Shown: piece by piece, positions 21,841-61,400 of the stretch
How positions within the stretch are numbered: the first letter of the stretch is position 1
Layout: every line of letters starts with the position of its first letter
NCBI RefSeq assembly: GCF_032444005.1
Contig: NC_091283.1
Location: forward strand, 329,592,001-329,656,000
DNA from: Ranitomeya imitator
Taxonomy: Eukaryota
Reading direction: 5' to 3'
DNA: 64,000 nt
Program-made: the position numbers and the translations under genes
The notes under the pieces: model-generated
What the model was told of the DNA's origin: nothing
The model's database searches: none
Seen by the model: the letters and a program-made list of their open reading frames with translations, nothing else

Positions 21841-23285
21841 ATGACTGTACCAAGAGATCAGAGGGACAGCTGACATCTTCTTCAATTTTTAAATCAGATA
21901 ATCTTGAGATCCCACACGATGCAATTGAAGTGAATGCAATTACTCCAGATATACCATCATCCCTTCACAGCATCTGTCTGTCATCTGATCCTTTGAAACA
22001 GGTCCTGTCTTCTGATTCATTACCGACTACTAAGGAAAATCAAATTACTAAAATAAGCATTAAAGAAGGAACTGCTCCTAAATCAAAGAAGCCATTTTCA
22101 CCTTCAGAATATGGAAATGGCTTTCCCCTTGAAAAGACTTTTCTTAAACATCAAACAATTCACACAGCTGAGAACAGATTTACTTGTTCCAAGTGTGGGA
22201 AATGTTTTAACCAGAAATCAGATTTTGTTATACACCACAGAACTCACACAGGGGAGAAGCCTTTTTCCTGTTCAGAATGTGGTAAATGTTATAGCCATAA
22301 ATCAGATTTGCGTAAGCACCAGAGAACCCACACAGGGCAGAAGCCTTTTTCCTGTTCCGAATGTGGGAAATGTTTTAACCAGAAATCAGATTTGCGTAAG
22401 CACCAGAGAATTCACACAGGGGAGATGCCTTTTTCCTGTTCCGAATGTGGGAAATGTTTTAACCAGAAATCAGGTTTTGTTATACACCACAGGACTCACA
22501 CAGGGGAGAAGCCTTTTTCCTGTTTAGAATGTGGGAAATGTTTTAACCAGAAATCAGATTTGCATAAGCACCAGAGAATTCACACAGGGGAGATGCCTTT
22601 TTCCTGTTCCGAATGTGGGAAATGTTTTAACCAGAAATCAGGTTTTATTATACACCACAGAACTCACACAGGGGAGAAGCCTTTTTCCTGTTCCGAATGT
22701 GGGAAATGTTTTAACCAGAAATCAGATTTGCGTAAGCACCAGAGAATTCACACAGGGGAGAAGCCTTTTTCCTGTTCCGAATGTGGGAAATGTTTTAACC
22801 AGAAATCAGATTTGCGTAAGCATCAGAGAATTCACACAGGGGAGATGCCTTTTTCCTGTTCCGAATGTGGGAAATGTTTTAACCTGAAAGGTCATCTTGA
22901 TTACCACCAGAGAACCCACACAGGGGAGAAGCCTTTTTCCTGTTCAGATTGTGGGAAATGTTTTAACCTGAAAGGTCATCTTGATTGCCACCAGAGAATT
23001 CACACAGGGGAGAAGCCTTTTTCCTGTTCCGAATGTGGGAAATGTTTTAACCAGAAATCAGATTTGCGTAAGCACCAGAGAACTCACACAGGGGAGAAGC
23101 CTTTTTCCTGTTCAGAATGTGGGAAATGTTTTAACCAGAAAGCTCATCTTGATTACCACCAGAGAACCCACACAGGGGAGAAGCCTTTTTCCTGTTCCGA
23201 ATGTGGGAAATGTTTTAACCAGAAATCAGATTTGCTTAAATGCCAGAGAATTCACTCTGGGGAGAAGCTTTCTTCATGTTCTTAA
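21841..23285 (+). CDS. ZNF gene terminal exon: spacer plus tandem C2H2 array (12 canonical fingers, one His-to-Cys finger, one degenerate N-terminal finger)
   Basis: ttttttgcag|ATGACTGT acceptor; open frame to TAA at 23283-23285; repeated CSECGKCF..H...HTGEKP. The six spliced exons total 2016 nt (671 aa plus stop). Confidence 0.95.
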
Positions 23286-23399
23286 TGTGGGAAATATTTT
23301 AAACTGAAAAGGTATTTTCTTAAATGGGTTGTTATCATGTTTGGCCTTGCTAAAATATCAAAAAAATCATATTCACCTTCCATGTTAGTGCTGTTCCAG

Positions 23400-27715: not shown

Positions 27716-28381
27716 AGCCATTCCATTAATCGGGAGCGGCGGCATTCCTGGCGGATGTATCGGCGGATTTGTTAAGATTAGCAGCTAGATCAGCTGGTCT
27801 AGTTAATGCCACTCCACGCGCTCTGTGGCTTAAGAGTTGGAAGGGAGATACGCAGTCAATAACAAAACTCTGCGTCATCTGTTATGGTCTGGTGATTAAG
27901 GAGCGACATGCGTCTAGCTCTGAGCAGGTGGCAACTATACTGACCGCAGTCCCTAAGCTCAACACAACACTAGAAGCAGCCGTGGAATGCTCCTAACACT
28001 GCCTATGCATCTCGTCACAGCCGGAGAACTAACTAACCCTAAAGATAGAAGCAGGAAAACTATCTTGCCTCAGAGAAAATTCCCAAAGGATAGATAAGCC
28101 CCCCACAAATAATGACTGTGAGAGGAGAAGGAAATGACATACGTAGTATGAAACAAGATTAAGCACAGGAGGCCACTTCTAGCTAGATAGAAAAAAGTAC
28201 AGGACAGAGCGCTGTGCGGTCAGTAATAAAAACTAGAAAAAGTCCACCGCAGAGAAATGCAAAAATCTCCACACCTGACTAAAGGTGTGGAGGGCAAACT
28301 CTGCAGCCCAGAGCTTCCAGCCTAGCTGAATAGATCCATACTGATAAGCTGGACAAATGAACAAAACATAGAAAGTGGAGA

Positions 28382-29536
28382 GCAAATAGATTAATGGCTG
28401 CACTCAAAATTAATCTGTGCTAGAGCAAGGAAATGTGTGATACATGAAATGGGAATAGCATAATGGCTTGTGAAATATATGAAAAAACGCATGAGATTCT
28501 TAGCACAAGATTTGGCCAAAATTTGTGAGCCCATCCACCAATCGTCAAGGTAATCTCAGAACGGATGGGTAACTGAGCTGACTGCCTAGTGTGAACACTT
28601 ACCTATGGCTAATAACGTGGTAAAGCCTGCTTATATAGGAAGCTCAGAACCAACTGTGTTAGGATGTAATTAAAATCACAGCATGGTGAAGGGCGGAGCG
28701 TTCAAGTCAGAAAAAATGTACATAGTAGATATAGAAAAACTGACTGAACAGCAATCTAATCTGAACTGGTGCATAACCAAAAAAGTCATATAGCAAATAG
28801 ATTAATGGCTGCACTCAAAATTAATCTGTGCTAGAGCAAGGAAATGTGTGATACATGAAATGGGAATAGCATAATGGCTTGTGAAATATATGAAAAAACA
28901 CATGAGATTCTTAGCACAAGATTTGGCCAAAAATTGTGAGCCCATCCACCAATCGTCAAGGTAATCTCAGAACGGATGGGTAACTGAGCTGACTGCCTAG
29001 TGTGAACACTTACCTATGGCTAATAACGTGGTAAAGCCTGCTTATATAGGAAGCTCAGAACCAACTGTGTTAGGATGTAATTAAAATCACAGCAGATTAG
29101 ATTGCTGTTCAGTCAGTTTTTCTATATCTACTATGTACATTTTTTCTGACTTGAACGCTCCGCCCTTCACCATGCTGTGATTTTAATTACATCCTAACAC
29201 AGTTGGTTCTGAGCTTCCTATATAAGCAGGCTTTACCACGTTATTAGCCATAGGTAAGTGTTCACACTAGGCAGTCAGCTCAGTTACCCATCCGTTCTGA
29301 GATTACCTTGACGATTGGTGGATGGGCTCACAATTTTTGGCCAAATCTTGTGCTAAGAATCTCATGTGTTTTTTCATATATTTCACAAGCCATTATGCTA
29401 TTCCCATTTCATGTATCACACATTTCCTTGCTCTAGCACAGATTAATTTTGAGTGCAACCATTAATCTATTTGCTATATGACTTTTTTGGCTATGCACCA
29501 GTTCAGATTAGATTGCTGTTCAGTCAGTTTTTCTAT
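28382..29536. repeat. Fold-back concatemer of a 411-bp unit inserted in the Gypsy-1 3' LTR
   Basis: Unit restarts at 28382 and 28793; inverted copy restarts at 29095 and 29506; atagaaagtggaga duplicated at 28368-28381 and 29537-29550. Confidence 0.88.
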
Positions 29537-29809
29537 ATAGAAAGTGGAGAACCACAAGACAACAAGAGAACTGCAAAAGAACAAGCAAGGACTTAGCTTT
29601 TGCTGAATTGGTCAGAGTGTCAGGAAAATCCTAAGAGCAAAGACTCCAGGCAGGAACAATGACAACTGGCATTGAATGAGGGAAAAGGCCAGACTAATAT
29701 AGCCGAGCCAGAAAGACGATCAGTGAAAACAGCTGCTGAAGCTAAATCCAAGAAGCAGCCATACCACTCAAAACCACAGGAGGGAGCCCAAGAACGGAAT
29801 TCACAACAG

Positions 29810-32800
29810 TACCCCCCCTTGAGGAGGGTTCACCGAACCCTCACCAGAGCCCCCAGGCCGATCAGGACGAGCCAAATGAAAAGCACGAATCAAATCGGCG
29901 ACATGAACATCGGAGGCAACAACCCAAGAATTATCTTCCTGGCCATAACCCTTCCACTTGACAAGATACTGAAGCTTCTGCCTCGAAAAACGAGAATCCA
30001 AAATTTTCTCAACCACATATTCCAACTCCCCCTCAACCAACACCGGAGCAGGAGGATCAACAGATGGAACAACGGGCACCACATATCTCCGCAACAAAGA
30101 TCTATGGAAAACATTGTGGATGGCAAAAGAGGCTGGAAGGGCCAAACGAAAAGACACAGGATTGATAATCTCAGAAATCTTATAAGGACCAATAAACCAA
30201 GGCTTGAACTTAGGGGAAGAAACCTTCATAGAAACATGACGAGAGGACAACCAGACCAAATCCCCCACCCGAAGCCGAGGACCAACACACCCACGGTGGT
30301 TAGCAAAACGCTGAGCCTTTTCCTGGGACAACGTCAAATTGTCCACCACATGAGTCCAAATCTGCTGTAACCTGTCCATCACAGAATCTACACCAGGACA
30401 ATCAGAAGGCTCAACCTGCCCTGAAGAAAAACGAGGATGGAAACCAAAATTACAAAAGAAAGGTGAAACCAAAGTAGCCGAACTGGCCCGATTATTAAGG
30501 GCAAACTCGGCCAACGGCAAGAAGGTCACCCAATCATCCTGATCAGCAGACACAAAGCATCTCAAATAGGTCTCCAAGGTTTGATTAGTTCGCTCAGTTT
30601 GACCATTTGTCTGAGGATGGAACGCCGAAGAAAAAGACAAATCAATACCCATCCTAGCACAAAAGGCCCGCCAAAACCTGGAAACAAACTGGGAACCTCT
30701 GTCAGACACAATATTCTCTGGAATGCCATGCAAATGAACCACATGTTGAAAAAACAATGGAACCAAATCAGAGGAGGAAGGCAATTTAGGCAAAGGTACC
30801 AAATGGACCATTTTAGAGAACCGGTCACAAACCACCCAAATAACAGACATCCTCTGGGACACAGGAAGCTCCGAAATAAAATCAATGGAAATATGCGTCC
30901 AAGGCCTCTCCGGGACGGGCAAAGGCAAAAGCAACCCACTAGCGCGGGAACAGCAAGGCTTAGCCCGGGCACAAGTCCCACAGGACTGCACAAAAGAACG
31001 TACATCCCGCGACAAGGAAGGCCACCAAAAGGACCTAGCAACCAAATCTCTGGTACCAAAAATCCCAGGATGACCGGCCAACACAGAACAATGGACCTCA
31101 GAAATTACCTCACTTGTCCATCTATCAGGAACAAACAACTTCCCCACAGGACAGCGCTCAGGTTTATCAGCCTGAAACTCCCGAAGCGCCCGCCGCAAAT
31201 CAGGGGAGATGGCAGACAGAATCACCCCTTCCCTAAGAATGCCAACCGGCTAAAGGACTCCAGGAGAATCCGGCAAAAAACTCCTAGAGAGGGCATCCGC
31301 TTTAACATTCTTAGATCCTGGAAGATATGAGACCACAAAATCAAAACGGGAGAAAAACAGGGACCACCGAGCCTGTCTAGGGTTCAGCCGCTTGGCCGAC
31401 TCAAGGTAAATCAGATTCTTATGATCGGTCAAGACCACAATGCGGTGCTTGGCTCCCTCAAGCCAATGTCGCCACTCCTCAAATGCCCACTTCATAGCCA
31501 ACAACTCCCGATTGCCAACATCATAATTGCGTTCCGCAGGCGAAAACTTTCGGGAAAAGAAGGCACATAGCTTCATCAAGGAACCATCAGAATTCCTCTG
31601 CGACAAAACGGCCCCTGCCCCAATCTCAGAAGCGTCAACCTCAACCTGAAAGGGAAGAGAAACATCCAGCTGACGCAAGACAGGGGCAGAAGTAAATCGG
31701 CGTTTAAGCTCCTGAAAGGCCTCAACAGCCTCCGAGGACCAATTAGTGACATCAGCGCCTTTCTTCGTCAAATCGGTCAGGGGTTTAACCACACTAGAGA
31801 AGTTGCAAATGAAATGGCGATAAAAATTAGCAAAGCCCAAAAACTTCTGTAGGCACTTCACAGATGTGGGTTGAATCCAGTCATGAATGGCTTGGACCTT
31901 AACAGGATCCATTTCTATAGACGAGGGGGAAAAAATAAACCCCAAAAAAGAGACCTTCTGAACTCCAAATAGGCACTTAGACCCCTTCACAAATAGAGCA
32001 TTATCACGAAGGATCTGGAATACCATCCTGACCTGCTTCACATGAGTCTCCCAATCATTGGAAAAATCAAAATATCATCCAAATACACAATCAAGAATTT
32101 GTCAAGATAATTGCGGAAAATATCATGCATAAAGGACTGAAATACAGAAGGAGCATTAGAAAGCCCGAAAGGCATCACCAGGTATTCAAAATGGCCTTCG
32201 GGCGTATTAAATGCAGTTTTCCATTCGTCACCCTGCTTGATACGAATAAGATTATATGCCCCTCGAAGGTCAATCTTGGTAAACCAACAAGCCCCCTTAA
32301 TCCTAGCAAACAAATCAGAGAGCAGAGGTAAAGGGTATTGGAACTTGACCGTGATCTTATTAAGAAGGCGATAATCAATACAGGGTCTTAAGGAGCCATC
32401 CTGCTTGGCAACAAAAAAGAATCCCGCTCCCAATGGTGACGAAGACGGCCGAATATGCCCCTTCTCCAAAGACTCCTTAACATAGCTCCGCGTAGCGGCA
32501 TGCTCTGGCACAGACAGATTGAAAAGTCGGCCCTTAGGGAACTTACAGCCAGGAATCAAGTCAATAGCGCAATCACAGTCCCTATGTGGAGGAAGGGAAC
32601 TGGACTTGGGCTCATCGAATACATCCTGGAAATCTGACAAAAATTCAGGAAAATCAGAAGAGGGGGAAGAGGAAATTGACATTAAAGGAACGTCACTATG
32701 TACCCCTTGACAACCCCAACTAGTCACAGACATCGATTTCCAATCCAGCACTGGATTGTGCACTTGTAACCATGGGAAACCTAGCACAACAACATCATGT

Positions 32801-33869
32801 AAATTATGCAACACCAGAAAACGGCAATCTTCCTGATGTGCAGGAGTCATGCACATAGTCAGCTGAGTCCAATACTGAGGTTTATTCTTGGCCAATGGTG
32901 TAGCATCAATACCCCTCAAGGGTATGGGACTCTGCAAAGGCTGCAAAGAAAAACCACAGCGCCTAGCGAACTCCAAGTCCATTAAGTTCAGAGCAGCGCC
33001 CGAATCCACAAATGCCATGACGGAAAAAGATGACAATGAGCAAATCAGGGTCACAGACAGGAGAAACTTAGGCTGCACAGTACTAATGGTAACAGATCTA
33101 GCGACCCTCTTAATACACTTAGGGCAATCAGAAATAGCATGAGTAGAATCACCACAGTAAAAACACAGACCATTCTGACGTCTGAATCCCCTCTGTTCCG
33201 CTCTAGTCAAAATCCTATCACATTGCATGGCCTCAGGACTCTGCTCAGAGGATACTGCCATATGGTGCACCACTTTGCGTTCGCGCAGGCGCCGATCAAT
33301 CTGAATGGCCAGAGACATAGATTCGCTCAAACCAACAGGCGTGGGAAACCCCACCATAACATCTTTAAGGGCTTCAGAAAGACCCTTTCTGAAAATTGCT
33401 GCCAGAGCGTCCTCATTCCATTTAATGAGCACAGACCATTTTCTAAATTTCTGGCAGTATAATTCTGCCGCTTCCTGACCCTGACACAAGGCCAACAGTG
33501 TTTTCTCAGCATGCTCTACAGAGTTAGGTTCGTCATACAATAATCCAAGCGATTGAAAAAATGCATCTACATTAAGCAATGCCGGATTCCCTGACTCAAG
33601 TGAGAATGCCCAGTCTTGAGGGTCGCCACGCAGTAGAGAAATAACTATCTTTACTTGCTGAATGGGGTCACCAGAGGAACGGGGTTTAAGAGCAAAAACA
33701 ATTTGCAGTTATTTTTAAAGTTCAAAAACTTAGATCTATCCCCGTAAAACAAATCCGGAGTAGGAATTCTAGGCTCTAAGGCCGGAGTCTGAACCACATA
33801 ATCTTGAATACTCTGTACTCGTGCAGCAAGGTGCTCCACACGAGAACATAAACTCTGAACATCCATGCC
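29810..33869 (-). pseudogene. Gypsy-1 gag-pol (two frameshifts and one in-frame TAG at 31250-31252)
   Basis: MDVQSL start; CFYCGDSTHAISDC knuckle; FVDSGA protease; YLDDIL RT; VDASEIG RNase H; HPQTNGQTER integrase; YLVKWKGY chromodomain. Confidence 0.92.
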
Positions 33870-36800
33870 TGCATCCAAATCCCGAATCACCCAGAGATCA
33901 AGAGGAAGAAAAATGACCAAACAAACTAAAGAGAAAAAAAAAATGGCTCAGAACTTTTTCTCTTCCTTCTTTTGAGAGGCAATCAGCTCATTTTTGGCCA
34001 GTTGTACTGTTATGGTCTGGTGATTAAGGAGCGACATGCGTCTAGCTCTGATCAGGTGGCAACTATACTGACTGCAGTCCCTAAGCTCAACACAACACTA
34101 GAAGCAGCCGTGGAATGCTCCTAACACTGCCTATGCATCTCGTCACAGCCGGAGAACTAACTAACCCTAAAGATAGAAGCAGGAAAACTATCTTGCCTCA
34201 GAGAAAATTCCCAAAGGATAGATAAGCCCCCCACAAATAATGACTGTGAGAGGAGAAGGAAATGACATACGTAGTATGAAACAAGATCAAGCACAGGAGG
34301 CCACTTCTAGCTAGATAGAAAAAAGTACAGGACAGAGCGCTGTGCGGTCAGTAATAAAAACTAGAAAAAGTCCACCGCAGAGAAATGCAAAAATCTCCAC
34401 ACCTGACTAAAGGTGTGGAGGGCAAACTCTGCAGCCCAGAGCTTCCAGCCTAGCTGAATAGATCCATACTGATAAGCTGGACAAATGAACAAAACATAGA
34501 AAGTGGAGAACCACAAGACAACAACAAGAGAACTGCAAAAGAACAAGCAAGGACTTACCTTTTGCTGAATTGGTCAGAGTGTCAGGAAAATCCTAAGAGC
34601 AAAGACTCCAGGCAGGAACAATGACAACTGGCATTGAATGAGGGCAAAGGCCAGACTAATATAGCCGAGCCAGAAAGACGATCAGTGAAAACAGCTGCTG
34701 AAGCTAAATCCAAGAAGCAGCCATACCACTCAAAACCACAGGAGGGAGCCCAAGAACGGAATTCACAACAGCCATCCCCTGCCAGGGTGAGTTTTTCTTC
34801 GGAAGTCTACTGGATGAGATACCAAAGCGGGAGAAAGGAAAAAGGGTTTCCCTAATCAAGCTCTTTCATTATATAGGAGAGCATTTAAAAGACGTCCATT
34901 CAACAAAAGGAAGATGTCGGAAGGCTGAGACTGTTGGGCTACGAAGAACGTCAAACAAAGGGGCTAAGTTTAAAGGGCCTTCTTCCCAGAAAGGTAGTAG
35001 GTTCCAATAGCCCAGATCCTCCAGTAGGAGGCAGACTAAAATGTTTCCACCAAAGATGGAAGGAGATAACAGCAAGTACCTGGTTCCTGAACCTAGTGAA
35101 GTTTCATGATTCGTTTATTTTGACATCACTTAAGTCACCAGGACCACAAATAGCTCTTGAATCAGAAATTCTGAATTTAGTGTCCTAAAAAGTCCTAGTA
35201 GAAGTTCCGGTGGGTCAGGAAGGAAGGGGATTTTATTCCCTTTTTTTTCCTGGTCTCTAAACCGGACGGGTCATTTAGGACCATTATAAATTTAAAGAAG
35301 TTAAATACCTTTCTTTACCATCTTAAATTCAAGATGGGGTTAATTAGATCCACTATCAAACTTTTATTTCCTAGATGTATGATGGCCGGATTGGATCTAA
35401 AAGATGCATATTATCATCTTCCTATACATGTCAAATACCAGCGGGATCTCGGAGTGGCAGTGATCTTGGCAGGGAGAGTCTGCCATTTCCAGTTCGCAGC
35501 GATGCCCTTCAGTCTCTCTATGGCACCTTGAGTATTCACGAAACTAATGTTGGAGGTGATGTCCTTTTTACGTCAGCAAAATATGTTGATTATACCCTAT
35601 TTAGATGATTTTCTGGTAGTAGGAAACTCGACCTTCCACTGTAGTAACCGCCTTGCTGACACAATTTTGTCTCTTCAGGCGTTGGCATGGATTATCAATT
35701 TCGAGAAGTCCAGCCTGGCACCACAGACCCTTCAGACTTTCCTGGGTCTTCATCTGGATTCCACAAGTCAAAAATATCTGCTTCCAGAGGTAAAGAAGTC
35801 AGTCATAAAGGCGACAGTTAGGACAGCAATGGACAAACCTCAGATATTCTTAAGAGAGGCTATGTCCCTTCTAGGATCCCTTACCTCCTGCATTCCGGCG
35901 GTCCTCCACAAGGAAGAAAGTTTGCGGAGTCATCTGGGGGGAGCAATAACCTTGTCTACATAAGTAATAACCTCACTGGCATGGAGGTTGGATGATACCC
36001 ATCTTTCTAGAGATGTCCTATGGGTAATAAAACCATCCATTATAATCACCAATGATGCTAGTCCTGAAGGATTGGGCGCCCATACAGGGAACAGCCTAGC
36101 CTAGGGACTGTGGAACACAGAGGAGATGCAGGACACATCAAACTTGAAAGAGCTGAACGCGATCAGTCATGTATTGCACATTTTCTTCCACAGCTTCAAG
36201 GTTCGCATGTAAGAGTCCTTTCAGACAACACCACGGCGGTTGCATATGTGAACCGACAAGGCAGAACACGATCAAAGAAGCTGATGTCTTCCGCTGTAAA
36301 AATTTTCATTTTAGCCAAGACCCATCTACTTTCTCTCTCAGCTATCCATATCAAGGGGAAGGACAACTCAAAAGCAGACTTCCTGAGCTATCATGTGCTA
36401 CGTCAAGGAGAATGGTGTCTCAACCGCCAGATATTCAGAAAGATCATAGAATTATGGGGTATTCCTCACATAAACCTTTTTGCCACTGAGGAGAACAAGT
36501 AGGTGCAGAGATTCACCTCCCTGAATACAGCAGATCATCCGGAGAAAATGGATGCCCTTCAAGCTCCTTGGCAGTTCAAACTAGCATATGCCTTTCCGCC
36601 AATAATGCTGCTACCTCTTGTCATCAGAAAGATCAGGGAACAGAAAGCAAGGATAATCCTCATCGCACCGTTCTGGCCCAAGAGTCCTTGATTCTCCTAG
36701 CTGCGGGCCATGTCCATGACCGACCCATGGGTCCTCCCATCAATCCCGGATCCACTCTCTCAGGGTCCATGCCTTCATCCTCAAGTGGAGGGTCTCCACC

Positions 36801-44347: not shown

Positions 44348-46210
44348 CCCCTTCACCTCAAGCCTATTTTCACCTTCCTGACCAGGCCAAATGTTTCAAT
44401 TCTGACACTTTATTAGGTTATAACTCTAGAAAGCTCAGCATATCCCAGTGATTCTGAGTTTGTTTTTTCTAGACATGTTGCACTTCATGTTATTGGTAAA
44501 TTATGGTCGATATGATTTACAGTTACTTATGAAAATATTGAATATTTGACAAAAAATTTGAAAATGTTGAAATTTTTACATCTTTAAACCAGATAGTAAT
44601 ATTTCCAAAACCAATATTTTTAGGGACATCACATTTGAAGTGACTTTAAAGGGTCTCTGTGACAGAAAATACCAAAAAGTGATAACATTTTAAACAGTAC
44701 ACATTACAAAGTGCTCAAAAACATTTTCAAGAAGTTTATTATCCCTTTTATGGGGTTCACCAGAATTAAAGCAATATGGAAGGAAAAAATTAAAATTTTA
44801 CTTTTCCCCACAAAAATATTGCTTTTGCCCCACATTTTGCATTTTCAAAATGGTTACAGGAGAAAATGGACCATACAAATTGCTGTACAATTTCTCCTAA
44901 GTACACCAATACCCCACATGTGGTACAAAATTACTGTTTGAGCGCATAGCAAGGCTCGAAAGGGAAGGAGCGCTATTTGACTTTTGGCGCGCAAAATTGT
45001 CTGGCATAGATAGCAGACACCATTTCGCTTTTGCAGAGCCCCTAATGTGCCTAAACAGTGGAAACTCTGCACAAGTGACCGCATTTTGGAAACTACACAC
45101 CTCAAGGCACTTATCTAGATGTCTGGTGAGCACCTTGAACCCACAGGTGCTTCACAGAATTTTATAACGTTGAGCTGTGAAAATGAAAAAATAAAATTTT
45201 CATAGAAAAATGTTGCTTCAGCCCCAAATATTTCATTTCCACAAGGGTAGCAGGATAAAATGGACAGTACCATTTGTTGTGCACTTTCTACTGAGTACAC
45301 TGATACTGATTGGGTGCACCACTGTGCTTGAAAGGGAAGGAGCGCCATTTGACTTTTGGAGCGCAAAATTGGCTGGAATAGATAGCCGACTCCATGTCAC
45401 GTTTGCAGAGCCTTAATGTGCCCAAATAGTAGAAACATTCCCACAAATGACCCCATTTTGGAAACTTCACTCCTCAAAGCTCTTAGCTAGAGGTGTGGTG
45501 AGCACCTTGAACAAACGGGTGCTTCAAAGAATTTTATATCACTTAGCTGTGAAAATTAAAAACTAAATTTTTCCTGAAAAAATGTTGTTTCAGCCCCAAA
45601 TATTTAATTTCCACATGGGTAACAGGAGAAAATGACCATACAATTTGTTGTGCGATATCTCCTGAATACACCGATACCCCATATGTGGTGGACAGCTACT
45701 GTTTGGGTGCATGGCAAGGCTGGGAAGGGAATGAACACCAATTGACTTTTAAAGTGCAAAATTGGCTAAAATAGATAGCGGACGTCATGTTGCACTTGCA
45801 GAGCCTCTGGTGTGCCTAAAGAGTGGAAATCCCTCACAAGTGACCCCATTTTGGAAAAGGAATTTATCTAGATGTGTGGTGAGCACCTTGAACCGTCAGG
45901 TGTTTCACAGAACTTTGTAACGCTGAGTCATGAAAATGAAAAAAATCATTTTTTTCCTACAAAAATGTTGCTTTAGCCCCACATTTTTCTTTTTGACTAG
46001 GGTGACCGGAGAAAATGGACCCCAAAATCTGTGCTATTTCTGATGAGTACGCTGATATCACATATGTGGTGGAAAACTACTGGTTGGGCCCACAACAGGG
46101 CTCGGAAGGAAAGGAGTGCCAATTGAAATCTAGCGCACAATTTTGGCTGGAATAAATTGCGTATGCCATGTCACATTTGAAGAGCCCCTGACATGCCAAA
46201 ACAGCAAAAA
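44348..46210. mobile_element. Truncated piggyBac-like non-autonomous element with ~380-bp internal tandem repeats
   Basis: Begins ttaa|ccccttc; anchor cacaa(g/a)tgacc.cattttggaaa recurs at about 45070, 45442 and 45835; no right terminus before the CR1. Confidence 0.6.
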
Positions 46211-51770: not shown

Positions 51771-54107
51771 TTAAGGAGGTTTCTCCCTGGCACTCCAATG
51801 AAGATCAACCCTTGTAACTGAAATACATTGGATGCATTAGGATATAAAAGAGAACTGAACTTTTTAGAGGGGACACACTGATACAGCGGAGATATGTGAC
51901 ATCTAGAGACAGAGAGAGAGCCTGATGACTTCTACCATAATAATGTAATGTATGAATAATGTACTTTATTGTTTAATCCTATTATTAAGTAAATTAAAAT
52001 TTTGTTTACTCAATTCTCGTGTGAACATTTATTTATTCATCACAATCTGTGAATCCATTACAAAACAATCTCCCACACACTGAATACAATATACTACAAA
52101 TTTACTACAGGTGATAAATTGTGTAATGAAATGTTTTTATTAATGTGATTAAATATTTTTTTTTGTTTCTCATATTTCCAAGGTGAACATTTATCACTGC
52201 CGCATTTGTGAGAACCCATAGGGGTGAGCCGGTTTCTTTTATGTGTTTCTCTTACTAGTAAACTAGGAGATATAAAACCTACAAGAAACAAAATGAGCAA
52301 AAACCCTGCTGTAACTAAATAAGTAAAAAGCAAGTGTGCATTTAAATAACACAGAGTTCCTAGTAATACTGTTTTCGATCAAAAATAGCATAAAAGCCAT
52401 CCCAACGTCAACAAGGTGACCCTGATCGGGACGGTCCTGCGCTGTCTAATATTAAAAACCTTACCATGTGTCAAAGTGGACTTCAGTGCGTGAATAAGAG
52501 CAGACAAAAGGACTGGTTCCCGACCTTTGGACACCAGTCTGGGGAAGTCTTTATATGTAATTTTCAAGGAGAGTGAAGCCACACCCCGGCTTGCACAGAA
52601 TGCAAAAAATACAAAGAAGAAATACAAAAATTGAACTTGGTATGCATGCAGCACATAAACGCATGTTCACATTGGCCATAAAGCATACCAAAACTAAACT
52701 AGGAGACAGGAGTTGTGGAAAGGTCGGGGGTTTGTGGCCAAGAACAAACAACTATCTCGTAATATCCGATGTCGGCTATCACTGTACCACACGGGAAGGG
52801 ATTTGTTAATAATTTCTAATTTAGATGACCGTATAATAAAAACACAGACAAATTAAAAAGAATCAAGTACAGGAAAAGATCGGCGGGTATGGCGTCAAAA
52901 TGGCATTATTTATATCAAATACATAATGGGACTTGATAATTGTCTCTTCACACAGTGAAGAAAGAAAGAAAGTGCCAGAGCACAACTGCCTGCAGTGTTA
53001 AGCATGTATTATTATTATTATTATTTATTGTTATAGCGCCATTTATTCCATGGCGCTTTACATGTAAGGAGGGGTATACATAATAAAAGCAAGTACAATA
53101 ATCTTAAACAATACAAGTCATAACTGGTACAGGAGGAGTGAGGACCCTGCCCGCGAAGGCTCACAATCTACAAGGGATGGGTGAGAATACAGTAGGTGAG
53201 GATAGAGCTGTGTTGTGAATTCTGTGGCTGAATTCACTCCTGTGGTCACAAGTGGTACTGCAGCTTCTGAGCTTCCTCCCTCAGGTGTTCTGGTGAGCTC
53301 GTTGGCTGCTTTGTTATTTAACTCCGCCTGATTCTGTCTTCCTGGCTCCTTGTCATTGTTCCGGTGTTGGATCTGAGCTTCTGGATCTTTCCTGTGGCCT
53401 GCTGCTCTGCTTAGATAAGTGCTTCTTTGCTTTTGTTGCTACTTTTTCTGTCCAGCTTGTCAATTCGTTTTGCTGGAAGCTCTGAGACGCAAAGGGTGTA
53501 CCGCCGTGCCGTTAGTTCGGCACGGTGGGTCTTTTTGCCCCCTTTGCGTGGTTTTTTGCTTTAGGGTTTTTTGTAGACTGCAAAGTTCTCTTTGCTGTCC
53601 TCGCTCTGTCTAGAATGTCGGGCCTCACTTTGCTGGGTCTATTTCATCCCTACGTTTGTCTTTTCATCTTGCTAGCAGTCATTGTATGTGGGGGGCTGCC
53701 TTTTCCTTTGGGGTATTTCTCTGAGGCAAGTCAGGCTTGTTTTTCTATCTTCAGGCTAGTCAGCTCCTCAGGCTGTGCCGAGTTGCATAGGTAGTGACAG
53801 GCGCAATCCACAGCTGCCTTTAGTTGTGTTTAGGATAGGTTCAGGTATTGCGGTCTACAGAGATTCCACGTCTCAGAGCTCGTTCTATTGTTTTTGGGTT
53901 ATTGTCAGATCACTGTGTGTGCTCTGATTGCTGGCACACTGTGTCACTGGATTGCCTACATAACTGTACAAACAGTACAAGGAGCCAACCTAATGATTCT
54001 CAATAGAGGGAAAAAAGAAGTTCTGACATCATTTTTTTTTTCTCAGCTCTGTGTTCAGTCTTTTTTTTCCCCTAGACATTTGGGTGTTTCAGGACACAGG
54101 TGTGGAC

Positions 54108-57100
54108 ATGGATATTCAGGGTCTGTGCTCTTCAATGGATAATCTCGTTACAAATGTACAAAGGATTCAAGATACTATTGATCAGAAATCTATGTTAGAA
54201 CCAAGAATTCCTATTCCTGATTTGTTTTTTGGTGATAGAACTAAGTTTCTTAATTTCAAAAATAATTGTAAGCTATTTCTGGCCTTGAAACCTCATTCTT
54301 CTGGTAATCCTATTCAACAGGTTTTGATTATTATTTCTTTTTTGCGCGGCGACCCTCAGGACTGGGCATTTTCTCTTGCGCCAGGAGACCCTGCATTGAG
54401 TAATGTAAATGCGTTTTTCCTGGCGCTCGGATTGCTTTACGATGAGCCTAATTCAGTGGATCAGGCTGAGAAAAATTTGCTGGCTTTGTGCCAGGGTCAG
54501 GATGATATAGAAGTATATTGTCAGAAATTTAGGAAGTGGTCAGTACTCACTCTGTGGAATGAATATGCGCTGGCAGCTTTGTTCAGAAAGGGTCTCTCTG
54601 AGGCTCTTAAGGATGTCATGGTGGGTTTTCCTATGCCTGCTGGTTTGAATGAGTCTGTCTTTGGCTATTCAGATCGGTCGACGCTTGCGCGAGCGTAAAT
54701 CTGTGCACCATTTGGCGGTATTGTCTAAGATTAAACCTGAGCCTATGCAGTGCGATAGGACTATGACCAGAGTTGAACGGCAAGAACACAGACGTCTGAA
54801 TGGTCTGTGTTTCTACTGTGGTGATTCCACTCATGCTGTTTCTGATTGTCCTAAGCGCACTAAGCGGTTCGCTAGGTCTGCCGTCATTGGTACTGTACAA
54901 TCCAAATTCCTTCTGTCCATTACCTTGATATGCTCTTTGTCATCGTATTCTGTCATGGCGTTTGTGGATTCAGGCGCTGCCCTGAATCTGATGGATTTGG
55001 ATTATGCTAAACGTTGTGGGTTTTTCTTGGAGCCTTTGCGGTGTCCTATTCCGTTGAGAGGAATTGATGCTACACCTTTGGCCAAGAATAAACCTCAGTA
55101 CTGGACCCAGCTGACCATGTGCATGGCTCCTGCACATCAGGAAGTTATTTGCTTTCTGGTGCTACATAATCTGCATGATGTGGTCGTGTTGGGGTTGCCA
55201 TGGCTGCAAACCCATAATCCAGTATTGGATTGGAACTCTATGTCGGTATCCAGCTGGGGTTGTCAGAGGGTACATGGTGATGTTCCATTTTTGTCTATTT
55301 CGTCATCCACTCCTTCTGAGGTCCCAGAGTTCTTGTCTGATTATCAGGATGTATTTGGGGAGCCCAAGTCCGATGCCCTACCTCCGCATAGGGATTGTGA
55401 TTGTGCTATCAATTTGATTCCTGGTAGTAAATTCCCTAAAGGTCGATTATTTAATTTATCCGTGCCTGAACCCGCCGCTATGCGCAGTTATGTGAAGGAA
55501 TCCCTGGAGAAGGGACATATTCGCCCATCGTCATCACCACTGGGAGCAGGGTTCTTTTTTGTAGCCAAGAAGGATGGTTCGCTGAGACCGTGTATTGATT
55601 ACCGCCTTCTAAATAAGATCACTGTGAAATTTCAGTATCCCTTGCCATTGTTATCTGACTTGTTTGCTCGGATTAAGGGGGCTAGTTGGTTCACTAAGAT
55701 AGATCTTCGTGGTGCGTATAATCTGGTGAGAATCAGGCAAGGAGATGAATGGAAAACTGCATTTAATACGCCCGAGGGTCATTTAGAGTATCTAGTAATG
55801 CCGTTCGGACTTGCCAATGCTCCATCTGTGTTTCAGTCTTTTATGCATGACATCTTCCGTGAGTATCTGGATAAATTCCTGATTGTTTACTTGGATGACA
55901 TTTTGATCTTCTCTAATGATTGGGACTCTCATGTGAAGCAGGTCAGAATGGTTTTCCAGGTCCTGCGTGCTAATTCTTTGTTTGTGAAGGGATCAAAGTG
56001 TCTCTTCGGTGTGCAGAAAGTTTCATTTTTGGGGTTCATCTTTTCCCCTTCTACTATCGAGATGGATCCGGTTAAGGTCCAAGCCATCCAGGATTGGACT
56101 CAGCCGACATCTCTGAAAAGTCTGCAAAAATTCCTGGGCTTTGCTAATTTTTATCGTCGCTTCATCTGTAATTTTTCTAGCATTGCCAAACCATTGACCG
56201 ATTTGACCAAGAAGGGTGCTGATTTGGTTAATTGGTCTTCTGCTGCTGTGGAAGCTTTTCAGGAGTTGAAGCATCGTTTTTGTTCTGCCCCTGTGTTGTG
56301 TCAACCAGATGTTTCTCTTCCGTTCCAGGTCGAGGTTGATGCTTCTGAGATTGGAGCAGGGGCGGTTTTGTCACAGAGAGGTTCTGGTTGCTCAGTGTTG
56401 AAACCATGTGCTTTCTTTTCCAGGAAGTTTTCGGCTGCTGAGCGTAATTATGATGTGGGCAACCGAGAGTTGCTGGCCATGAAGTGGGCATTCGAGGAAT
56501 GGCGTCATTGGCTTGAAGGAGCTAAGCATCGCGTGGTGGTATTGACTGATCATAAGAACCTTACTTATCTCGAGTCTGCCAAGCGCTTGAATCCTAGACA
56601 GGCCCGTTGGTCGTTATTTTTTGCCCGCTTCGATTTTGTGATTTCGTACCTTCCGGGCTCTAAAAATGTGAAGGCGGATGCTCTGTCTAGGAGTTTTGTG
56701 GCCGACTCTCCGGGTTCATCTGAGCCGGCGAGTATCCTCAAGGAAGGAGTCATTGTGTCTGCCATCTCCCCTGATTTGCGGTGAGTGTTGCAAAAATTTC
56801 AGGCAAATAAACCTGATCGTTGTCCGGCGGAGAAACTGTTCGTCCCTGATAGGTGGACTAGTAAAGTTATCTCTGAACTTCATTGTTCGGTGTTGGCTGG
56901 TCATCCTGGAATCTTTGGTACCAGAGAGTTAGTGGCTAGATCCTTCTGGTGGCCATCTCTGTCACGGGATGTACGTGCTTTTGTGCAGTCCTGTGGGATT
57001 TGTGCTAGGGCTAAGCCCTGCTGTTCACGTGCCAGTGGGTTGCTTTTGCCCTTGCCGGTCCCAAAGAGGCCTTGGACACATATTTCGATGGATTTCATTT

Positions 57101-58469
57101 CTGACCTTCCCGTTTCTCAAAAGATGTCAGTCATTTGGGTGGTCTGTGATCGCTTTTCTAAAATGGTCCATCTGGTGCCCTTGGTTAAATTGCCTTCCTC
57201 CTCTGATTTGGTGCCTTTGTTCTTCCAGCATGTGGTTCGTTTGCATGGCATTCCTGAGAATATTGTTTCTGACAGAGGTTCCCAGTTTGTTTCAAGATTT
57301 TGGCGAGCCTTTTGTGGTAGGATGGGCATTGACCATTGACCATTGACGGGCAGCACGGTGGCGCAGTGGTTAGCACTCTAGCCTTGCAGCGCTGGAGTCC
57401 TGGGTTCTAATCCCACTCAGGACAACATCTGCAAAGAGTGTTCTCTCCGTGTTTGCGTGGGTTTCCTCCGGGTACTCCGGTTTCCTCCCACATTCCAAAG
57501 ACATACTGATAGGGAATTTAGATTGTGAGCCCCATCGGGGACAGTAATGATAATGTGTGCAAAAAAACTGTAAAGCGCTGCGGAATATGTTAGCGCTATA
57601 TAAAAATAAAGATTATTTATTTTATTTATTTATTGACCTATCTTTTTCCTCGGCTTTCCATCCTCAGACTAATGGCCAGACCGAACGAACCAATCAGACC
57701 TTGGAAACATCTGAGATGTTTTGTTTCTGCAGACCAGGATGATTGGGTGTCCTTTTTGCCGTTGGCTGAGTTCGCCCTTAATAATCGGGCCAGCTCGGCT
57801 ACCTTGGTCTCTCCATTTTTCTGCAATTCTGGGTTCCATCCTCGTTTCTCTTCAGGACAGGTTGAGTCTTCGGACTGTCCTGGTGTGGATTCTGTGGTGG
57901 ACAGGTTGCAGCAGATCTGGACTCAGGTAGTGGACAATTTGACCTTGTGCCAGGAGAAGGCTCAACTTTTCGCTAATCGCAGACGCCGTGTGGGTCCCCG
58001 ACTTCGTGTTGGGGATCTGGTTTGGTTATCTTCTCGTCATATTCCTATGAAGGTTTCCTCTCCTAAATTTAAACCTCGTTTTATTGGTCCGTATAGGATT
58101 TCTGAGATTCTCAATCCTGTGTCTTTTCGTCTGACCCTCCCAGACTCCTTTTCCATACATAATGTATTCCATAGGTCGTTGTTGCGGAGATACGTGGCAC
58201 CTATGGTTCCATCTGTTGAGCCTCCTGCCCCGGTTTTGGTGGAGGGGGAATTGGAGTATATTGTAGAGAAAATTTTGGATTCTCGTGTTTCTAGACGGAA
58301 ACTCCAGTATCTGGTTAAATGGAAGGGTTATGCTCAGGAAGATAATTCCTGGGTTTTTGCCTCTGATGTCCATGCTCCAGATCTTGTTCGTGCCTTTCAT
58401 GTGGCTCATCCTGGTCGGCCTGGGGGCTCTGGTGAGGGTTCGGTGACCCCTCCTCAAGGGGGGGGGTAC
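54108..58469 (+). pseudogene. Gypsy-2 gag-pol (frameshift ~54655, TGA at 56782-56784, SINE insertion in integrase)
   Basis: Same domain series as Gypsy-1: CCHC knuckle, DSGA, YLDD, DAS, DDE integrase, chromodomain. Confidence 0.93.
57348..57631 (+). mobile_element. tRNA-derived V-SINE-like element with an L2-type tail
   Basis: A box tggcgcagtgg, B box ggttctaatcc, central gtgggtttcctccgggtactccggtttcctcccaca domain; attgac duplicated at both ends. Confidence 0.9.
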
Positions 58470-61400
58470 TGTTGTGAATTCTGTGGCTGAATTCACTCCT
58501 GTGGTCACAAGTGGTACTGCAGCTTCTGAGCTTCCTCCCTCAGGTGTTCTGGTGAGCTCGTTGGCTGCTTTGTTATTTAACTCCGCCTGATTCTGTCTTC
58601 CTGGCTCCTTGTCATTGTTCCAGTGTTGGATCTGAGCTTCTGGATCTTTCCTGTGGCCTGCTGCTCTGCTTAGATAAGTGCTTCTTTGCTTTTGTTGCTA
58701 CTTTTTCTGTCCAGCTTGTCAATTCGTTTTGCTGGAAGCTCTGAGACGCAAAGGGTGTACCGCCGTGCCGTTAGTTCGGCACGGTGGGTCTTTTTGCCCC
58801 CTTTGCGTGGTTTTTTGCTTTAGGGTTTTTTGTAGACTGCAAAGTTCTCTTTGCTGTCCTCGCTCTGTCTAGAATGTCGGGCCTCACTTTGCTGGGTCTA
58901 TTTCATCCCTACGTTTGTCTTTTCATCTTGCTAGCAGTCATTGTATGTGGGGGGCTGCCTTTTCCTTTGGGGTATTTCTCTGAGGCAAGTCAGGCTTGTT
59001 TTTCTATCTTCAGGCTAGTCAGCTCCTCAGGCTGTGCCGAGTTGCATAGGTAGTGACAGGCGCAATCCACAGCTGCCTTTAGTTGTGTTTAGGATAGGTT
59101 CAGGTATTGCGGTCTACAGAGATTCCACGTCTCAGAGCTCGTTCTATTGTTTTTGGGTTATTGTCAGATCACTGTGTGTGCTCTGATTGCTGGCACACTG
59201 TGTCACTGGATTGCCTACATAACAGAGCTGGTCATGCAGCGGTTTGGTCGATCGGTGGTTACTGCAGGTTGTAGGCTTGTCGGAAGAGGTGGGTCTTCAG
59301 GTTCTTTTTGAAGGTTTCGATGGTAGGCGAGAGTCTGATGTGTTGTGGTACAGGGTTCCAGAGTAAGGGTGATACGCGAGAGAAATCTTGTATACGATTG
59401 TGGGAAGAGGAGATAAGAGGGGAGTAGAGTAGGAGATCTTGTGAGGATCGGAGGTTGCGTGTAGGTAAGTACCGGGAGACGAGGTCACAGATGTATGGAG
59501 GAGACAGGTTGTGGATGGCTTTGTACGTCATGGTTAGGCTTTTGTAGTGGAGTCTCTGGGCAATGGGGAGCCAGTGAAGGGATTGACAGAGGGGAGAGGC
59601 CGGGGAATAGCGAGGGGACAGGTGGATTAGTCGGGCAGCAGAGTTTAGTTTAGAATAGATTGGAGGGGTGCGAGAGTGTTAGAGGGGAGGCCACAGAGCA
59701 GGAGGTTGCAGTAGTCAAGGCGAGAGATGATGAGGGCATGGACTAGGGTTTTTGCAGATTCATGGTTGAGGAATGAACGGATTTGTGAAATATTTTTGAG
59801 TTGAAGTCGGCAGGAAGTGGAAAGGGCTTGGATATGTGGTTTGAAGGAGAGATCAGCGTCAAAGATTACCCCGAGGCAGCGAGCTTGTGGGACTGGGGAG
59901 AGTGGGCAGCCATTTACTGTAATGGATAGGTTCGTTGGGGGGGTCGCGTGAGATGGGGGAAAGATGATGAATTCTGTTTTGTCCATGTTAAGTTTCAGAA
60001 ATCTAGCGGAGAAGAAGGATGAAATAGTGGACAGACATTGAGGGATTCTGGTTAGAAGGGAGGTGATATCTGGTCCAGAGATGTAGATCTGTGTGTCGTC
60101 AGCATAGAGGTGATACTGAAAGCCATGAGATTGTATGAGCTGTCCCAGGCCAAAGGTTTAAATGGAGAAGAGCAGGGGCCCGAGGACTGAACCTTGTGGG
60201 ACTCCGACGGATAGAGGGCGAGGTGAGGAGGTGGTGTGTGAGTGGGAGACGCTGAATGTCCGGTCTGTTAGGTATGATGAGATCCAGGATAGGGCCAAGT
60301 CTGCGATGCCAAGGGATGAGAGGGTCTGTAATAATAGGGAATGGTCCACTGTGTCAAAGGCAGCCGACAGGTCTAGGAGGAGGAGGACAGAGTAGTGTCA
60401 CTTGCTCTTGGCGGTTAAGAGGTCATTGGTGACTTTAGTTAGGGCAGTTTCAGTGGAATGGTGTGACCGGAAGCCAGATTGTAGGCGGTCAAAGAGGGAG
60501 CAAGAAGAGAGATGGGAGGACAGTTCAAGGTAAACGTGTTGTTCCAGTAGTTTGGAGGCATAGGGGAGAAGTGATATAGGGCGATAGCTAGATACAGAGG
60601 ATGGGTCAAGAGAAGGCTTTTTGAGGATAGGTGTGATGGAGGCATGTTTAAAGCTTGAGGGGAAAACACCAGTTGTTAGTGATAGGTTGAAGAGATGGGT
60701 TAGGGTTGGGATGAAGACTGTGGTGAGGTTTGGGATGAGGTGGGATGGGAGCGGGTCAAGTGCACAGGTGGTGAGATGCGATCTTGAGAGTAGAGTGGAG
60801 AGTTGATGTTCTGTAATGGTGGAGAAGTTGGTTTTGGAGGTGGAGGGCTGGGAAATCGGGAGGAAGGGCTCAGGGGGTTGTTGACCAAAACTGTCTCTGA
60901 TGCTATCAATCTTCTGCTTGAAAAATGAGGCAAAGTCTTCAGCGGAGATAAGTGGGGAGGGAGGAGGTGCTGGGAGACGGAGGAGAGAGTTGAAGGTGTT
61001 GAATAACTGTTTAGGGTTGTGAGACAGAGAGGATATGAGAGATGAGAAGTAGGTTTGTTTTGCTGTGGCGATTGTGGTATTGAAAGTAGTGAGGGACTGT
61101 TTGAATGCGATGAAGTGCTCGTTAGAGTGGGATCTTTTCCATCTGCGCTCAGCAGCCCTGGAAGCTCGCCTCAGTTCTTTGGTCAGGCTGGTGTGCCAGG
61201 GCTGTCTGTTGATTTTGCGAGCTTTGGTATGTGTAAGTGGGGCAGCAGATTCCAAAACTACAGCTATTGTGGTGTTATATAGAGCGGCAGCGTCATCCGC
61301 ATTGTGTATGGAACTTATGTCTGTGAGAGGGAGGAGGGATTCAGAGAATGAATGTAGGTCAAGATGTTTAAGATTTCTGCGAGGGTGTGAAAGTTTGTGG

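Follow-up and report, generated by a model that had tools for sequence, protein, structure and literature searches.

Background

The retrozymes described so far form circles and use a hammerhead of type I (PMC7229834; bioRxiv 10.64898/2026.07.22.740005). Since surveys for retrozymes take the hammerhead as their starting point, they miss hammerhead-less families by design. Insertions of Penelope-like elements (PLEs) are described as partially tandem, with one arm inverted and a tail on one side only (PMC8557442, PMC3846280). A purified PLE protein nicked and extended both strands in vitro, and started reverse transcription at two internal sites which delimit the tail (PMC11167929).

The insert studied here has the same partial tandem and inverted arm, and it is a copy of a dispersed ORF-less family of about 411 bp, quite probably mobilised in trans by a PLE RT/GIY-YIG protein and likely copied from a circular monomer RNA.

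Structure of the insert and its host element

The insert was found at 28368-29550 of the window (the whole 64-kb stretch of DNA that was analysed), and its features are collected in Table 1. The left (forward) arm is 713 bp long and keeps a period of 411 bp with 2 mismatches, while the right (reverse) arm is 442 bp long and begins at unit phase about 380-382. About 1.7 forward and about 1.07 inverted copies with different phases had been described in the sequence-only reading, which agrees with the 1.73 and 1.08 units measured here, and its 411-bp period held as well. The 14-bp TSD ATAGAAAGTGGAGA was present on both sides and once, free of any insert, in the other LTR, as had been claimed. The 411-bp unit has a GC content of 38.7%, and six-frame translation of the circular unit gave no ORF longer than about 55 codons, so the earlier description as ORF-less stands. 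That the insert is an assembly artefact, a doubt raised by the same reading, is very unlikely because of the TSD, the empty twin site, the slight divergence between the copies inside the insert (0.7%) and the matching structure of dozens of other loci.

Table 1. Positions of the features of the insert and of its host element in the window
Feature	Position	Strand	Remark
Interrupted LTR of host element	27880..29808	-	called 3' LTR by inference from the adjoining polypurine tract
Left TSD, 14 bp	28368..28381	.	empty counterpart, single, at 34496
Left arm, 1.73 units	28382..29094	-	RNA-sense is minus; outer end is priming site B, unit phase 411/1
Inner arm junction, 2-nt microhomology/overlap	29093..29094	.	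most family fold-backs overlap by 0-5 nt
Right arm, 1.08 units	29095..29536	+	RNA-sense; stops at outer end, priming site A, phase 348-350
GC box	29158..29165	+	27/31 monomers of the 411-bp class; as CCGCCC in 0/48 of the 440-bp class
TATA-like box TATATAAG	29219..29226	+	26/31 monomers of the 411-bp class, 0/48 of the 440-bp class
5' splice-donor block GTAAGTGTTCACA	29254..29266	+	GT at 29254; common to all subfamilies; also anchor for collecting them
Candidate four-helix double pseudoknot, drawn by eye	29279..29440	+	two family-level compensatory pairs
PLE-type tail between sites B and A, one insertion end only	29475..29536	+	62 nt; family median 67 nt
Right TSD, 14 bp	29537..29550	.	same 14-mer as left TSD
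Gag-pol frames of host LTR retrotransposon, three pieces	29810..33708	-	context
Uninterrupted host LTR	34008..34770	-	holds the empty target site at 34496

The minus-strand host element, an LTR retrotransposon of the Gypsy type, has gag, protease, RT, RNase H, integrase and chromodomain frames. With the insert excluded, its two LTRs are separated by 5 substitutions and a single 3-nt indel, which suggests that the insert is young and would have arrived after the host element had integrated. Two further unit insertions (L019, L082) have surroundings that by eye resemble the LTR of the window, which probably reflects the abundance of that LTR family.

Several other features were seen in the window. 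Another LTR retrotransposon (53211-59223), which is oriented oppositely, has LTRs with 99.9% identity, and its body is 79-83% like the host element. An array of an 84-bp repeat with 13.4 copies (22087-23326) looks like a C2H2 zinc-finger exon, and a diverged tandem of about 372-393-bp units (44780-46204), about 73% alike, is unrelated to the 411-bp family. A stretch inside the LTR (27990-28010) is similar to the 5' portion of twister ribozymes, for which Rfam gave no match at E 10.

A dispersed family of tandem units

In the assembly of 5.96 Gb, 1,606 candidates were obtained with the 411-bp unit, 40 of which were scored. A 24-mer of the unit had 520 exact matches genome-wide and a motif common to all subfamilies had 3,135, with none for the reversed control of either. 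Unit lengths across the family range from 403 to 446 bp, and identity goes down to about 73%. A sister subfamily of 403-410 bp is 82-86% identical to the 411-bp unit (141 exact motif matches), and subfamilies of 439-446 bp are about 73% identical to it (539 matches). The sister subfamilies were reached via loose ends of public contigs, and pieces of the unit also occur in public contigs labelled organisms A, B and D.

The 411-bp unit is one member of a mobile family without ORFs that is scattered over the genome in thousands of copies, and permuted insertions with TSDs could be found at other loci. An undescribed small mobile unit had been suggested from the sequence, and the family fits this suggestion, since it is apparently undescribed.

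Some loci hold longer arrays. One of about 18 units (L352, G000:C1:795411000-795420900) and one of about 7 units (L068/L130) are broken by repeated inserts, and local duplication after insertion is the apparent source of their expansion. In addition, one insertion together with its flanks was present three times at a spacing of about 31 kb on G000:C892 (L013-L015) and once at C2:299.65 Mb (L018), which is either a tandem segmental repeat or assembly redundancy.

Anatomy of the insertions

From 135 loci, 33 overlaps or segmental duplicates were removed, and the 102 insertions left were analysed; as the loci were the top-scoring matches and the first exact-motif matches, mostly on contig C1, the set is biased to longer and younger copies. 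Fold-backs made up 56 of the 102, all of them in the order '+ then -' with both RNA 3' ends outward. A TSD was present in 50 insertions, with a mode of 14-15 bp (33 of the 50), and in 39 of the 56 fold-backs.

The outer ends of the arms correspond to the 3' end of the minus strand, and 79 of 89 primed outer ends fell within site A (phase 330-357) or site B (phase 400-6), two windows which cover 46 of the 411 positions; 9 of 11 unprimed ends fell outside them. Where both ends of a fold-back were at these sites (36 cases), 34 were A+B, none was A+A and two were B+B (p 1e-8), and the remaining 20 fold-backs had at least one end away from both sites. The A-B offset, which gives the length of the tail, had a median of 67 nt (n=30). 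At the target edges (n=82) T was found 45, G 46, R 61 and C 39 times, alike on both sides, which is a symmetric TG(R)C preference. The sister subfamilies showed the same pattern with an A-B offset near 74 nt and a TSD of 14-17 bp in 11 of 20 loci.

Machinery of mobilisation

The family is almost certainly RNA-based and target-primed. A retrocopy of a multimeric or circular RNA was one of the origins proposed from the sequence alone, and the fixed ends, TSDs and fold-backs support it in the form of a target-primed copy. The capture of a satellite or of an extrachromosomal circular DNA during break repair, proposed there as well, would explain why the unit is tandem and permuted, and a few loci (L068, L352, L402) do contain 5-20 units. 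It is however extremely improbable, in view of the strand-specific fixed ends, the tight TSD length and the symmetric target preference, and the order '- then +' occurred in none of the 56 fold-backs.

L1 insertions typically have TSDs of 14-15 bp and inversions, and to this extent twin priming by LINE-1/Tx1 on a multimeric RNA, the mechanism first put forward, fits the insertions. This mechanism would also be expected to leave an A-tail, to use a TT/AAAA target and to give arms that abut. An A-tail was found at none of 100 edges and TT/AAAA at one of 100, the arms abutted within 30 nt in 17 of the 56 fold-backs, which is the chance level (15.4 expected, p 0.36), and they began at fixed internal sites in A+B pairs. 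Twin priming by L1 is thus largely refuted and is held to be highly improbable. A head derived from tRNA, 5S or 7SL gave no Rfam match in the window and four loci.

PLE machinery very probably mobilises the family. The two-site ends with a one-sided tail point to it, and so do the autonomous PLEs of the same genome, whose insertions agree in TSD, fold-back and tail. Young PLEs of the GIY-YIG type are numerous there, with intact ORFs of 800-930 aa. One autonomous PLE family had TSD-bounded fold-backs at 10 of 30 loci, with ends 58-77 nt apart (one of the TSDs is doubtful). Among 20 further autonomous PLE loci, 11 had a TSD, called at 12-18 bp and mostly 14-15 bp, and 9 of these 11 carried a tail of 53-107 nt at one end. 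The tail of the unit (67 nt) is longer than the published 30-40 nt and within the range of the PLEs of this genome. The match of PLE targets to the target of the unit was 2.0 of 4, against 1.2 for the background and 2.45 for the unit itself, a weak agreement from 12 edges. For the autonomous partner, a profile of all subfamilies was compared with 130 PLE loci (650 kb) and matched nothing except one copy of the unit itself; these loci, which queries with GIY-YIG and with two PLE proteins had yielded, represent a small fraction of the 64,805-71,711 candidates. Alignments of the tail to three PLE families were no better than shuffles.

With PLE machinery, the minus strand of the unit would be transcribed through tandem copies, and a PLE protein, probably as a dimer, would nick both target strands 14-15 bp apart and prime two cDNAs, one from each of the sites A and B. 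These cDNAs would each extend from a fraction of a turn to several turns, and the two would then be joined by microhomology into a fold-back; as an alternative outcome, a single arm would survive as a 5'-truncated array.

The unit might instead be the detached pseudo-LTR (pLTR) of an unsampled autonomous PLE family in which the hammerhead was lost or had never been present, which would make the unit an ordinary solo-pLTR family. Promoter motifs and a splice donor are known in the pLTRs of PLEs (PMC8557442, PMC3846280), in Xenopus, a match between retrozymes and pLTRs is on record for 24 of 57 families (bioRxiv 10.64898/2026.07.22.740005), and the PLE sample comprised only 130 loci. This origin is nevertheless unlikely. 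Among about 420 loci no unit copy went on into a common body or ORF. The one exception is a duplicated locus at which a copy lies directly beside a 5'-truncated PLE, and the 3' end of this PLE does not resemble the unit. A hammerhead-like motif was present in 11 of 11 TSD-bounded autonomous PLEs.

At the duplicated locus (L219 and L231, G000:C4 near 128.81 and 131.54 Mb), a copy of the sister subfamily adjoins a 5'-truncated PLE ORF in a duplicated, rearranged region; the contact was probably made by a later PLE insertion, with a chimeric insertion as the alternative. Far-apart motif pairs were also considered as pLTR-ORF-pLTR structures, and the inspected cases turned out to be later insertions of LTR elements or other sequences.

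Template of reverse transcription

On balance, a circular monomer RNA seems to have been the template in most events. The copies of one insertion are mostly uniform: of 1104 cases, 59 showed diagnostic sites mixed inside an insertion, where independent copies would give about 296. In the 439-446-bp subfamilies, one TSD-bounded fold-back (L402) has arms of 4.65 and 7.32 units (about 12 in all), and its full copies, 9 in number, all share one base which is absent in the 5 other young loci compared. These about 12 near-identical units with a locus-specific variant favour rolling-circle copying of a monomer circle. In addition, L404 has 4 identical copies, whose two distinguishing bases recur in L406, and the 4 copies of L403 are 1-4 differences apart from each other and at least 13 from other loci. 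The stops of the cDNA did not pile up at a putative start site (4 of 113, with 5.8 expected).

A possible though more doubtful alternative keeps the same PLE machinery and takes a linear read-through multimer as the template, with homology-driven template switching regenerating the tandems, so that a circle is unneeded. A multi-copy mRNA template has been proposed for the PLE protein, with hammerhead cleavage dispensable in vitro (PMC11167929). Mosaic insertions also fit it: 7 of 78 had at least 3 mixed diagnostic sites, 3 of them with 5-8 (about 0.1 expected at 5), which counts against a pure monomer circle, and in L074 some sites alternate between copies. It likewise agrees with the short arms of the 411-bp family, most of which are below two units (only 4 of 113 are longer), and with the failure to find a ribozyme of a known class. 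The uniform 12 units of L402, in both arms, would on the other hand need a long uniform donor or about ten seamless jumps, and the stops of the cDNA do not cluster at any fixed 5' end.

The short arms count against a pure monomer circle too, and so do the private variants and the divergence of the copies. Private variants were found in all copies of an insertion in 10 cases and in some copies only in 219, as mutation after insertion would give. The median divergence was 1.5% within an insertion, above the 0.9% to the nearest other locus. Uniformity may also have come down from donor arrays that were themselves uniform, and the monomer step would then only lie one generation further back.

Promoter-like motifs, splice donor and RNA fold

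A GC box, TATATAAG and AG|GTAAGT had been read in that order on one strand, and all three were found so in the insert. Across the family this set held only in part: the donor block is present in all subfamilies, with the caveat that it served as the anchor for collecting them, but neither the TATA-like box nor the AG in front of the donor is conserved in the 439-446-bp subfamilies, and the TATA-like and GC boxes are confined to the 411-bp class. The bases before GTAAGT are CATAG, CAGAG and CTTCG in three groups. A role of AG|GTAAGT as combined acceptor and donor for back-splicing was discarded, as the AG is not conserved and no YAG is present in all subfamilies. A likeness to an Sm site or a spliced leader, judged by the usual consensus, is not conserved in the 440-bp class.

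Genomic copies spliced at the donor were not found (0 junction matches, with 1 chance match outside the family), and the length of the donor junction was altered in 2 of 279 contexts. Stable lariats and intron circles made by the spliceosome exist (PMC6112733, PMC11146597). For this family nothing beyond the donor points to such a route, and it was set aside with no spliced partner product, no junction scars and, by inspection, a poor branch site. In one PLE family (L169, L170, L172, L173, L181) an intron of about 300 nt was observed in the pLTR, 3' of the ORF, which is kept in 3 of 5 copies and precisely missing in 2.

No CTGANGA hammerhead core had been seen in the unit, and descriptors, motif search and Rfam likewise gave no hammerhead. 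A type I hammerhead was present in 0 of 79 monomers on either strand, with a pattern that detected 16 of 20 PLE control loci (an earlier, stricter descriptor detected only 1 of 4 controls), and GAAA was found on the sense strand of only 4 of 79 monomers. The ribozyme covariance search proposed earlier was run with Rfam on the window and four loci; it returned no ribozyme, only matches to miRNA hairpins and chance matches below the threshold. Many young autonomous PLE families of the genome (L139-L164, L175, L304-L321) carry, in their 3' regions, hammerhead-like motifs with altered cores, CUGUGGA, CUGAGGA, CUGAAGA and UUGAAAA, replacing CUGAUGA, followed by a normal GAAAC and a palindromic stem. 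Such motifs would mostly be missed by hammerhead surveys.

The candidate double pseudoknot is a lead for a motif that may bind the RT or cleave itself. Its four helices are 92% paired over 34 sequences, two compensatory pairs in them separate the 411-bp from the 440-bp class, and the G-U changes favour the minus strand; this support is post hoc and comes from about three lineages. With a wider alignment, RNAalifold recovered one of the four helices and proposed others. The folding energy of the minus strand was not below that of shuffles (z -1.2 to 0.2), and energy and alignment folds gave no signal on either strand in the 411/407-bp classes. A vertebrate circular-RNA retroelement free of a hammerhead, in which the pseudoknot would cleave itself (or, less likely, the donor would let the spliceosome close the circle) and PLE would carry out rolling-circle reverse transcription from two sites, is offered as a speculative and rather improbable model. 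Should the conserved fold prove to cleave, a vertebrate genome would contain a new class of ribozyme.

Comparison with known systems

Hammerhead-poor, head-to-tail non-autonomous PLEs are already known from Chlamydomonas (PMC8557442), and the vertebrate case is apparently undescribed. In the literature searched, no hammerhead-less tandem PLE passenger was found in vertebrates; Repbase, Dfam and the amphibian consensus lists (bioRxiv supplements), which lay outside the search, may hold relatives. For the insertion reaction of PLEs, which is poorly understood, the family supplies counts on the scale of a genome, with one arm per start site and a symmetric target, and it gives evidence that one monomer can be copied up to seven times per arm. 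The origin of PLE tandems and retrozyme arrays, by a circle or by template jumps, could be tested with a 411-nt RNA.

HDV-like ribozymes have two crossing helices of 6-7 bp with an insert of about 14 nt between them, and the fold of the unit resembles them in topology only. In contrast to them, it has no cytosine in the strand of the catalytic C, the first pair of its 5' helix is not conserved, and it has no Rfam match.

Metazoan non-LTR retrozymes are, like the unit, ORF-less tandems of a few hundred bp with low GC, dispersed as monomers to multimers (PMC7229834; bioRxiv 10.64898/2026.07.22.740005), with TSDs above 4 bp, a likely dependence on PLEs and a likely circular RNA intermediate. The tandem structure, a GC content below 50%, the lack of an ORF and the TSD length are seen in the family (tandems of 403-446 bp, 38.7% GC, no ORF, TSD mode 14-15 bp). 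The unit differs in having no type I hammerhead (0/79 monomers) and no match to the sampled pLTRs, and it has instead a conserved splice donor and the candidate pseudoknot. As the hammerhead test fails, the unit is not a retrozyme by definition.

The endonuclease-positive PLEs (Penelope/Poseidon, Neptune, Naiad, Chlamys) share with the unit the partial tandems, the inverted 5'-truncated arm, the TSD, the tail at one end from two internal starts of reverse transcription and the retention of an unspliced donor. Unlike them, the unit has no RT/GIY-YIG ORF, and its tail is about 67-75 nt against their 30-40 nt. It is also hammerhead-less, as are Naiad and most Chlamys.

Non-autonomous Chlamys elements, of which MRC1 of Chlamydomonas is an example, are likewise PLE passengers with head-to-tail multicopy insertions, in a clade which is mostly hammerhead-less (PMC8557442). 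They generally resemble their autonomous partner at the 3' end, whereas no such similarity was found for the unit among 130 PLE loci, and the host of the unit is an animal with hammerhead-bearing PLEs. In its behaviour, the element resembles a non-LTR retrozyme or a non-autonomous PLE.
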